In this document: piece after piece, positions 15,001 to 18,000 of the stretch | Numbering within the stretch: position 1 is the first letter of the stretch | Layout: each line of letters opens with the position of its first letter | Assembly: GCF_045037415.1 (NCBI RefSeq) | Contig: NZ_CP173438.1 | DNA: 64,000 nt | Strand: one strand, 5' to 3' | Origin: Escherichia coli | GTDB lineage: Bacteria; Pseudomonadota; Gammaproteobacteria; Enterobacterales; Enterobacteriaceae | Position numbers: made by a program

Positions 15001-18000
15001 TTGATTGCGCCTTCCATACCTTTAACAATCAGGTCTGCGGCTTCAGTCCAACCCATGTGGCGCAGCAGTATATAAAAATTATGTATTCAACTCGCTGATA
15101 TTTAATCATAAATATTATTTTCTTGTCTTTGTATTAGCCAAAATCAACTTTATTCAACCGTTTGATTTCATTGACGTTCGTTTTTATTTTGGGGAAAGAT
15201 TTTCTCTACCATTTATATCAAAATTACAAGTCTACATTTTATTAACATCTCAATACATGTGTGGCCTTGCAAGCCATTGCGAGGCCTTATGTGTCTCAGT
15301 TTTGTCCCGCCTTGTATTACGACTTGCATAGCCAATGAAGATAAACGTGACGACAAACAAAGCAGCTGTCTTCTTTTCTTTCACACTTTCCCCACTCAGC
15401 AGCATGCATACCTTCTACTATAACTGTAGTGAATGTCTATTATGAGCGAACTGCGGACATCGTGGAGACAACATGCTGCTGGGTGCGGATATCCCATGGC
15501 ACGTCATATCGCTCGCCGTATTACTTGTTATTTTTTTGAAACGAGAAGTTGATACAATTCCTTCAGGGATAAGGCTAATAACTCATTCTTCCTGATGAGA
15601 TCTTTATCAGCGTCTATACCCTCTGCGCATGATTCATTTAAATAGTTCAGTGTTTCCTGATCATCATCCAAGCATTCATAGCTGCCTGAATAAAATTCAT
15701 CGCAACTTGCTTTGTTATTTTTGTCAATGTAACCAATGCATTGAATCACGCCTTTAACAACTTTAGCAGCAGAAAAAACAAAGTAACTGCAGTCATTTAT
15801 ATAGCGTTCAATATCAAAAATCATATAAAAATAGTGCATAGAGTGTTTTTCAATTTCAAACTCACTTGAAATCATAGCTATTTCACATTCAAGGTCTTTC
15901 AGACCATCTAACATTATGGAAAGTTTACATTGTTTTTCTTGCACAGTTTCATACTTAAATGACTCTCTCCCCTTTGCCCTGACATTTATTCTTTCTTCAA
16001 TTGCATAAATATAAGCAGGATATACACGCGACCACACTTGGTTTATTTTTAGGATTAACCGGCCTCTTTTCAGCCTTTCTTTTGTAGCTATAAATTCTGC
16101 ATATAGCGCAGCATCCTCTTCGCACCATACATCAACTTTTCGTTTATAACCCAACTTTAATTCTTTCCCTACGCATTCAGGAAACAAAGGATCAAAGTCC
16201 TTTAAGTATTCAAACTCACTTAGATAGAATCCTGTCTCATAACGATTAAATAATTTCCTAAACTCTTTCCCACTTAAGGTTTTCATTGTATCAATCACTC
16301 TGTTTTCATAAAAGCAAAGTCAACAAGATAAAACAATAAAAACTCTTACACAACCAGCTGATGTTTTTAAAATAGAGGATAATATAAGACAAGCATAACC
16401 TCGTTCACTTCAATGCTACTCCTATCGTTCTTTTGCGTCACAGAGCGCCTGCCGGACAACTGCATCATAGACCAAACGGAACTGCTTCCGTCGATTAATC
16501 AGATGGCAGCGCATAAACACGCTCAACAACCCGTTTGACTGCTTCAATTTTAAGCTCTTCGGAATAACGCTTACCGTGTAAGTCTCCCTGCAAAACGAGC
16601 TATCAACTTTTAAGGAGTCTCTGGCCCCCCTGCTTCCGCTCCTGGCACACAGCAGCCCTAGAGACAGTGGAGTAAAGTCATGGAGGCTCGGTGGGGGGAG
16701 GTGCAAATCCTCCCATACAAAAAATACGAAAATCAGTAACGGCTAGAAATCATTCAATACATGCACTCTCGAAATTGCATCAGCCAACCGCAAAACGTTA
16801 TTTCAAAGCCTACTAGCTGCCTTACTTTTTTCCTCAATAACGCGTCGCCAGCAGGAAACAACCTAATCCCTGTTTTGGGCCTCAAAGCTGCTAATGATAA
16901 TCATTTTCATTTTGTATAGGCTGTGCTATAAAACATAGCCGTTGCTATATTTGTTCTAATTTTGCTCACTATAGGTACTAAATTATGCACTCGATAAAAA
17001 AAGTAACCATGCTCTTGGGGGGGCTCGCACTCACCTGCTCGATCGCATTTCAGGCAAGTGCAACTGAAAAATTCAAGGTCATTACAACATTTACCATCAT
17101 CGCGGATATGGCCAAAAACGTGGCGGGAGATGCTGCAGAAGTCTCATCCATAACCAAGCCTGGTGCAGAAATTCATGAGTATCAGCCTACCCCTGGCGAT
17201 ATTAAACGTGCGCAGGGGGCACAACTGATTCTCGCCAATGGTATGAATCTGGAATTGTGGTTCCAACGCTTTTACCAGCATCTCAATGGGGTTCCAGAAG
17301 TAATTGTCTCTTCGGGTGTGACGCCTGTAGGGATCACCGAAGGACCCTATGAGGGCAAACCTAACCCCCATGCATGGATGTCGCCAGATAATGCTCTGAT
17401 TTACGTCGATAATATTCGTGATGCGTTGATAAAATACGATCCGGCAAATGCACAAACCTACCAACGCAATGCCGATACTTATAAAGCCAAGATTACCCAA
17501 ACCCTTGCCCCCCTGCGTAAGCAGATTACGGAACTCCCTGAGAATCAGCGATGGATGGTCACCAGTGAAGGGGCTTTTTCTTATCTCGCACGCGATTTGG
17601 GGCTAAAAGAGCTTTATCTGTGGCCGATTAATGCCGATCAACAAGGAACACCGCAGCAGGTACGTAAGGTTGTTGATATAGTTAAGAAAAATCATATCCC
17701 GGCAGTCTTTAGCGAGAGTACGATTTCCGATAAACCAGCGCGTCAGGTTGCGCGTGAAACCGGCGCACACTACGGCGGTGTGCTCTATGTCGATTCCCTG
17801 AGCACAGAAAACGGCCCGGTACCGACGTATATCGACCTTCTTAAGGTTACTACCAGTACGCTGGTACAGGGAATTAAAGCTGGGAAAAGGGAGAAATAAT
17901 GATGCAATCTGCAGGCATTGTCGTTAATGATGTTACTGTCACCTGGCGTAACGGGCACACAGCACTGCGCGATGCATCCTTCACAGTACCAAGTGGATCT

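Follow-up and report, generated by a model that had tools for sequence, protein, structure and literature searches.

A predicted winged-helix protein encoded next to the attachment site of phage-21-type prophages and its apparent spread as a single-gene cassette

The genome of phage 21 was annotated by experts with InterProScan and HHpred, and its gene 31 stayed 'hypothetical' and unnamed (PMC9119081). Here we examined the counterpart of this gene in a stretch of 64,000 nucleotides of Escherichia coli DNA (RefSeq assembly GCF_045037415.1, contig NZ_CP173438.1), which is called the window below. A first-pass annotation of the window had singled out this gene as an orphan and as a candidate single-gene anti-phage or abortive-infection factor. 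The encoded protein showed 99.6% amino acid identity with phage 21 gene 31, CPT_21_31 (UMO75446.1), which occupies the same b-region position, with sitABCD on one side and attP on the other, and it matched the PHROG 20520 profile from end to end (E = 1.4e-177; residues 5–256 against positions 1–252 of 252). CPT_21_31, the RefSeq protein WP_000567449.1, and PHROG 20520 are the same gene and are hypothetical or function-unassigned in all three records, so they provide context but no mechanism, and no functional study of the gene was found in the literature. The term orphan is apt in that the protein belongs to no characterized family, and the gene is already catalogued as phage 21 gene 31 and PHROG 20520. 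On the basis of a predicted structure, gene 31 is best regarded as a prophage accessory gene whose product combines a MerR-superfamily winged helix with a novel partner domain. The new elements of this study are the N-terminal fold assignment, a map of conserved residues, the delimitation of the mobile unit, and the observation that the slot varies allelically; the gene itself has long been catalogued as hypothetical.

Six-frame translation gave a 256-aa open reading frame (ORF) at 15528–16298 on the minus strand with a GTG start at 16298, and the RefSeq call for exactly 15528–16298 in an identical E. coli chromosome is the 256-aa hypothetical protein WP_000567449.1; the existence of the ORF is thus borne out by both. 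Because the phage 21 record, the PHROG 20520 profile, and every homologue begin at MKTLSGKEF, four codons later, the ATG at 16286 is more likely to be the start than the GTG at 16298. The coding sequence and its two predicted domains are as follows.

15528–16286, minus strand: coding sequence of the gene 31 protein, 252 aa from the ATG at 16286, with the stop codon at 15528–15530.
16119–16286, minus strand: N-terminal domain, residues 5–60 in the 256-aa numbering, consisting of a strand, a helix, a helix, and a β-hairpin.
15531–16118, minus strand: acidic C-terminal domain, residues 61–256, from the predicted model, with a predicted local distance difference test (pLDDT) score mostly >90.

The mass of the protein is ca. 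29.7 kDa. Pairwise ratios of nonsynonymous to synonymous substitution rates (dN/dS) were 0.16–0.41 against eight orthologues from Klebsiella, Citrobacter, Mangrovibacter, an Aeromonadaceae metagenome-assembled genome (MAG), and metagenomes. Since these values were accompanied by a confident AlphaFold2 fold, the ORF is a genuine protein-coding gene under purifying selection and not a chance ORF. The guanine-plus-cytosine (GC) content of the gene was 34.1%, and 30.8% at third codon positions (GC3). The first-pass annotation had described it as AT-rich compared with its neighbors, and this held mainly against the sit operon on the right (ca. 48–54% GC), since the neighbors on the left (14400–15400) are AT-rich themselves (35–41% GC). 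It had also credited the gene with an AT-rich upstream region of its own; 16299–16420 is indeed AT-rich, and ca. 110 bp of it is kept wherever the gene occurs.

The AlphaFold2 model of the protein had a mean pLDDT of 91.6 and a predicted template modeling score (pTM) of 0.83. According to the model, the protein is soluble and cytoplasmic, and helical apart from the wing. The highest Kyte-Doolittle mean over 19 residues was 1.46, which is under the transmembrane level and agrees with the first-pass statement that no transmembrane segment is present. That the protein could not be placed in any family was confirmed as well, since searches with hidden Markov models and structures gave no significant Pfam, NCBIfam, PADLOC, or PDB match, and no significant fold match of the full model outside its own family. 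Specifically, Pfam yielded no match even at E ≤ 10, NCBIfam yielded none, and a second PHROG was not significant (E = 0.037). Searches of the PDB by sequence, with the single protein and with the family profile, returned only a de novo designed protein (E = 0.07–0.37). When the full model was compared with the PDB by Foldseek, the best E value was 0.08, and the matches were generic or designed helical bundles, ClyA, PhoU, and JetC arms at low probability; against AFDB50, nothing significant was found outside its own family.

The N-terminal domain is predicted to be a winged helix-turn-helix of the AlpA-excisionase/MerR type (MerR superfamily) by fold and not by sequence profile. In the model, this domain contains a helix-turn-helix and then a β-hairpin wing, as looked for in the MerR-superfamily fold, and a 55-residue helix follows directly after the wing. 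The sequence profiles MerR, MerR_1, HTH_17, Phage_AlpA, and related ones were not matched in Pfam (E ≤ 10) or NCBIfam. Judging from the model, the N-terminal domain most likely binds nucleic acid. The basic residues K11, R14, and K52 of helix 1 and the wing were invariant even in the 26%-identical homologue P0035 (described below), in which GFYL, FP, W, and LYAE of this domain were also invariant. As a caveat to DNA binding, the fold matches of the N-terminal domain included CbpM, in which the same fold serves protein binding.

In the C-terminal domain, the model places helices at residues 60–114, 119–151, 157–193, and 210–255, and their apparent packing is an elongated four-helix bundle. No relatives of this domain were detectable beyond its own family by Foldseek against the PDB and AFDB50. 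H155, Y156, E201, and D212-D213 were kept even in P0035. Four Cys residues (170, 187, 199, and 209) were invariant or nearly so in the close family, but not in P0035.

DNA similarity between the window and the loci of other genera was confined to 15443–16398, reaching 16663 in one Citrobacter. The shared unit of ca. 1 kb consists of gene 31, ca. 85 bp downstream, and ca. 110 bp upstream. Neighboring genes differed in all ten contexts examined, and no conserved neighbor or partner gene was found; in these ten contexts, gene 31 lacked the conserved adjacent partner that characterizes toxin-antitoxin and two-gene abortive-infection systems. A conserved divergent partner was considered and rejected, as the upstream ORFs of two Citrobacter loci, 381 aa and 389 aa long, showed no relation to one another and had no counterpart in the window. 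These sequence comparisons indicate that gene 31 is an autonomous accessory ('moron') single-gene cassette that hops among prophages, integrative and conjugative elements (ICEs), and genomic islands of Enterobacteriaceae. It was found in the following contexts.

Phage 21: in the b region.
Klebsiella variicola and Citrobacter telavivensis: near a 200-aa tyrosine recombinase, either immediately after it or 4 kb away.
Citrobacter telavivensis: this copy lies beside a T5orf172 protein with PD-Lambda-1/PDC-S57 similarity.
Two ICEs: in the cargo regions.
CP4-44-like island: adjoining an HNH_2 nuclease.
Aeromonadaceae MAG: adjoining a type I restriction-modification (R-M) system and an Imm50 gene.
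Mangrovibacter and a metagenome scaffold: in small islets.

The 200-aa tyrosine recombinase, which consists of the catalytic domain only and lies just upstream in two loci, scored well under every curated NCBIfam cut-off. The flanks of the cassette in the window are as follows.

16287–16398, minus strand: AT-rich upstream region that travels with the gene and is kept in Klebsiella, Citrobacter, and Mangrovibacter, with the blocks GGTTGTGTAAGAGT and GTTTTATCTTGTTGACTT (TTGACT at 16323–16318).
15443–15527, minus strand: conserved 3′ untranslated segment, ending in a left-arm stub (GTCCGC..TTCGCTCA) of a palindromic repeat.
15443–15465, minus strand: remnant of the left arm of the palindromic repeat.
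ca. 16620–16650, minus strand: remnant of the right arm of the palindromic repeat (TGTGCCAGGAGCGGAAG).

In Klebsiella and Citrobacter, the palindromic repeat of ca. 90–110 bp was present at both cassette ends, with a left arm of approximately GTCCGCTCCTCGCTCAGAGCGGAC, a variable loop, and a right arm ..GTGCCAGAAGCGGAAGTTGGA; the left arm travels with gene 31. Copies were located in the compared loci at L004 7867, 876, and 11825; L005 7586, 7641, and 8885; L008 7865, 9033, and 9759; and L014 7642, and copies also occurred between core genes. In a comparison with integron-type gene cassettes, which have an IntI integrase and, at the 3′ end, an attC site with RYYYAAC and GTTRRRY boxes, the ends of the cassette coincided with this repeat and some copies end in GTTGGAT or GTTGAAT, but no clear R″ box was seen. 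The repeat, which had no Rfam match, may be a dispersed element resembling a repetitive extragenic palindrome or a miniature inverted-repeat transposable element (REP/MITE-like) and not an attC-like site. For the 3′ segment at 15443–15527, a structured RNA or terminator was rejected, as its fold was no better than that of shuffled sequences (z = −0.41), and Rfam gave no relevant family around gene 31 or in the Citrobacter locus L005.

The upstream region 16287–16398 is presumed from its sequence to be the own promoter of gene 31. A CII-dependent promoter, which is annotated in phage 21 and has its match at 16323–16336, was rejected: the window has 12 occurrences of TTGYN6TTGY, compared with a chance expectation of 16, and the first TTGY of the CII box was not kept in copies outside the phage. 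Gene 31 has the orientation of the late operon. Because of this shared orientation, late read-through into gene 31 is possible by analogy with lambda biology. The low GC content would also make the gene a likely target of H-NS silencing.

Gene 31 was carried by 759 of 5426 complete E. coli genomes, among them sequence type 131 (ST131) strains, avian pathogenic E. coli (APEC) O18, and ATCC 25922, and 758 records contained it intact at an identity of at least 99%. In some strains, the gene was interrupted by the insertion sequence (IS) IS1, which was also found within the 1.4-kb gene region; since these insertions occur, gene 31 is dispensable. A search of 5.8 billion proteins gave 22 cluster representatives of ca. 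255 aa with 63–99% identity, which came from Citrobacter, Klebsiella, Mangrovibacter, one Aeromonadaceae MAG, and metagenome proteins. HMMER against 1.84 billion representative proteins added fragments and the one remote full-length relative, P0035 (E = 2.5e-4). The identity of P0035 was 37% over the N-terminal 81 residues (BLAST) and 26% over the full-length alignment, the N-terminal domain being the best conserved part. No additional relatives emerged when P0035 or the N-terminal domain profile served as the query, and IMG/VR contained one locus, identical to the query protein. These searches indicate that the family is tiny and almost entirely enterobacterial.

P0035 (L002 8001–9403, a metagenome contig) is encoded on a plasmid with an IncFII replicon, which also carries a Dot/Icm-type (DotM) gene. 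Directly downstream of P0035 is a gene for a 168-aa HNH protein that matched the PADLOC type IV restriction (McrA-like) model (E = 7e-8). Another apparent plasmid-borne copy, H51, located by sit in NZ_CP098209.1 (L011, 14.8 kb) with 72% identity, was rejected as an independent homologue. NZ_CP098209.1, deposited as a plasmid, contains sit, gene 31, and fragments of icd′ and ycgX and is frameshift-ridden; it appears to represent the chromosomal region in mis-assembled or error-rich form and not a genuine plasmid-borne homologue.

Window positions 14850–21218 were 98.9% identical to phage 21 bases 21183–27550 (b region to attP), and positions 60045–64000 were 97% identical to the int-to-gam side of phage 21. 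Because both segments match phage 21, we conclude from the sequence that the window contains a phage-21-like prophage integrated in icd. To the left of gene 31 are bluF, bluR, ycgX, ymgL, and the icd′ pseudogene, and to the right are sitABCD and then lambdoid tail genes. Gene 31 lies ca. 470 bp from the icd′ stub and is the last sizeable gene ahead of the junction, with a 51-aa ORF alone between them.

14904–15071, minus strand: icd′ pseudogene, a second copy of the 3′ end of icd and the marker of the prophage/chromosome junction.
15250–15405, minus strand: ORF of 51 aa that has a single hydrophobic segment (annotated in phage 21 as CPT_21_32, 'putative membrane protein'), outside the mobile cassette.
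16422–16650 (block to 16706), minus strand: degenerate remnant of an IS3-family orfA (..RYSEELKIEAVKRVVER..), as we read its translation, in a GC-rich block between gene 31 and sitA.
16985–20434, plus strand: sitABCD iron/manganese transporter, the other phage 21 b-region cargo, divergent from gene 31.

The att-proximal position of gene 31 is variable among related prophages. Among the E. coli genomes with sitABCD next to icd′, ca. 740 had gene 31 and ca. 220–298 had an unrelated filler of ca. 500 bp instead. The filler (L019 3000–3500, E. coli strain 98194; corresponding to window ca. 15350–16850) is unannotated and contains a C-terminal remnant with an EIRNKLAHG motif (RNxxAH/Rx4H, HEPN-like). 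The sole database echo of this remnant was a weak match to the Cas13b HEPN region (E = 0.005); it had no Pfam match, and a full-length copy was not found in E. coli or phage records. Further deletion variants and IS1 variants were present at the slot in E. coli. In e14 of E. coli K-12, mcrA lies directly before icdC, in a slot and orientation equivalent to those of gene 31, which upholds the first-pass placement of the gene at the prophage/chromosome junction in the mcrA slot. Because sister prophages carry gene 31, the HEPN-like filler, or deletion or IS1 variants, cargo turns over at the att-proximal slot in prophages of the phage 21 type. The phage 21 genome has an int and a xis of its own, adjoining each other. 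Since these are present and since deletion and IS alleles exist, gene 31 is not required by the phage life cycle and is not part of the phage replication, morphogenesis, or integration machinery.

Several observations were made on the DNA around gene 31. The IS3 similarity in the gap between gene 31 and sitA was termed 'unconvincing' by the phage 21 annotators. A 1401-bp query that included the IS3-like block matched 1919 E. coli genomes against 759 for the ORF alone, the ca. 1,160 extra genomes being at lower identity, and a different IS3-type orfA fragment was located upstream of the Mangrovibacter copy (L006 7736–7882). The 51-aa ORF at 15250–15405 had no PHROG match. An inverted repeat of 18 nt with 89% complementarity (15389–15406/15472–15489) would pair the 3′ untranslated region of the 252-aa gene with the start codon of the 51-aa ORF. 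This pairing at 15389–15489 recalls translational occlusion in type I toxin mRNAs, and its fold was only modestly more stable than that of shuffled sequences (z = −1.42). Two Rfam matches below the gathering threshold were obtained: STnc150, an Hfq-binding small RNA (sRNA), at 14752–14890 on the plus strand between ycgX/ymgL and icd′ (33 bits, E = 3.9e-4), and IS009 at 20430–20528 on the minus strand just past sitD (51.7 bits, E = 7.5e-10). In addition, iraM and ymgK, located between icdC and ymgL in K-12 (1211577–1212650), were unannotated in the strain background of window 14650–14900, where ymgL is directly followed by icd′.

We tentatively favor the possibility that the gene 31 protein is a binding-type exclusion or defence factor directed at phages or mobile elements and acting in inter-element conflict. 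The protein would be expressed from the resident element, and when a phage or another mobile element enters, the winged helix would bind its DNA or one of its DNA-protein complexes. The helical domain would then obstruct replication, transcription, packaging, or some other DNA transaction, with the conserved HY...E...DDD patch as its candidate functional site. As a single-protein exclusion or defence factor, it would act by binding and not by catalysis. The circumstantial evidence for exclusion is of three kinds: the cassette is self-contained, without a partner, and resides in the cargo of prophages, ICEs, and islands; some copies adjoin a type I R-M system, HNH_2, or T5orf172, and P0035 adjoins the McrA-like HNH protein; and the slot is filled by the HEPN-like remnant in sister prophages and by mcrA in e14. 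The constraint on the gene, the invariant K11, R14, and K52, and its dispensability are in keeping with this reading as well. Gene 31 presumably benefits the resident element or the host. Several results weigh against exclusion. The sole match among the 5027 models of PADLOC-DB v2.0.0 was PDC-M13C (E = 0.0034), covering 25 residues of a 70-position candidate model, and neither a nuclease nor an NTPase, toxin, or membrane-effector domain was found by Pfam, NCBIfam, or Foldseek; the HNH nuclease domain likewise had no match (Pfam HNH; PADLOC mREase_IV). The presumed recognition helix, YLSEFEYLKD, is acidic and aromatic, not basic, and the net charge of the N-terminal domain is +1. The other immediate neighbors tested mostly had no PADLOC match, so that the 'defence island' signal around gene 31 is suggestive, uncontrolled, and mixed. 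A promoter scan found no consensus site on the strand of gene 31, TTGACT being without a convincing −10. Moreover, deletion of the related icd prophage NC-SV alters phage susceptibility, and its authors credit an sRNA in cI, not gene 31 (PMC12803456). The homology evidence neither supports nor refutes the first-pass proposal that gene 31 is a single-gene anti-phage or abortive-infection factor. A more specific proposal is that gene 31 represents a new class of single-protein phage-exclusion factor, in which an AlpA/MerR-like winged helix would recognize phage DNA or a replication or packaging intermediate and a four-helix domain not seen before, with its conserved HY...E...DDD patch, would block the process; the factor would spread on a 1-kb cassette through prophages, ICEs, and islands and be present in ca. 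14% of complete E. coli genomes. We regard this as doubtful.

Alternatively, the protein might be a very divergent MerR/AlpA-like transcription regulator, a moron that reprograms genes of the host or the element, through excision or cross-talk as in AlpA or through metal or redox sensing by Cys, with no direct anti-phage role. The match of the N-terminal fold to AlpA and MerR DNA-binding domains, the long helix placed directly after it as in MerR, the four Cys residues invariant or nearly so in the close family, and the divergent arrangement with the metal transporter genes sitABCD in phage 21 are all consistent with regulation. However, the cassette moves among unrelated contexts and genera without any target operon, which is unusual for a dedicated regulator, and its linkage to sitABCD is limited to phage-21-type prophages. 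The Cys residues are not kept in P0035, whereas HY, E, and DD are, and no Pfam MerR or HTH_17 match was obtained even at E ≤ 10; a regulator is in our judgment unlikely. Exclusion was ranked above regulation because a lone regulator without a linked target would be an unlikely passenger across such varied contexts, and a self-sufficient conflict function fits the behavior of the gene and the slot better. A counter-defence or DNA-handling role for the carrying element on transfer or induction (anti-restriction, interference with packaging or partition, or DNA protection or compaction) appears quite improbable: DdrC or a similar protein was absent among the listed Foldseek matches of the full model, and the gene persists in degraded prophages with tail-fibre pseudogenes, which speaks for a benefit while the element is resident. 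Least probable of all, and very much so, is the idea that the gene acts as a selfish addiction or toxin-like element, or that it is decaying and has no current function. The very narrow distribution with no detectable relatives, the IS1 insertions and deletion alleles in E. coli, and the low GC content that would make the gene a target of H-NS could be explained in this way. On the other hand, the gene is under purifying selection across genera and is intact at an identity of at least 99% in 758 records, and it has neither a conserved partner antitoxin gene nor a membrane or enzymatic toxin feature.

Phage 21 is a founding model phage, and its gene 31 is present in ca. one-seventh of complete E. 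coli genomes, including those of pandemic ST131, APEC O18, and the reference strain ATCC 25922. The winged-helix domain predicted here, the novel helical domain, and the short list of conserved residues give a first structural handle on this gene, and the minimal mobile unit of ca. 1 kb, as defined above, is directly clonable. If the protein does exclude phages, a binding-type, non-enzymatic mechanism would join the defence repertoire and would bear on phage therapy against extraintestinal pathogenic E. coli (ExPEC). Should the protein instead be a regulator, gene 31 would exemplify the rewiring of host transcription by a prophage that also brings in the sit virulence transporter.

In comparison with known systems, the gene 31 protein resembles AlpA excisionases and MerR proteins in the predicted fold of its N-terminal domain, but it is four times the size of an excisionase and has no Pfam profile match to these domains, and a xis is already present beside int in phage 21. 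It differs from the MerR family in that its C-terminal domain corresponds to none of the known MerR effector domains and its presumed recognition helix is acidic. McrA of e14, a type IV HNH restriction enzyme, shares the slot and orientation with gene 31, each being the final gene ahead of the icd′ stub in a lambdoid prophage integrated in icd; the two proteins have no relation in sequence, fold, or HNH motif, and their likeness is positional only. To our knowledge, the gene 31 protein has no detectable homology to BstA. The two differ in the type of N-terminal domain and in genomic position, and an anti-phage phenotype has been shown for BstA only. What gene 31 presumably has in common with BstA is the general design: a prophage accessory gene for a single protein that has a putative DNA-binding domain at its N terminus and lacks a recognizable enzymatic domain.

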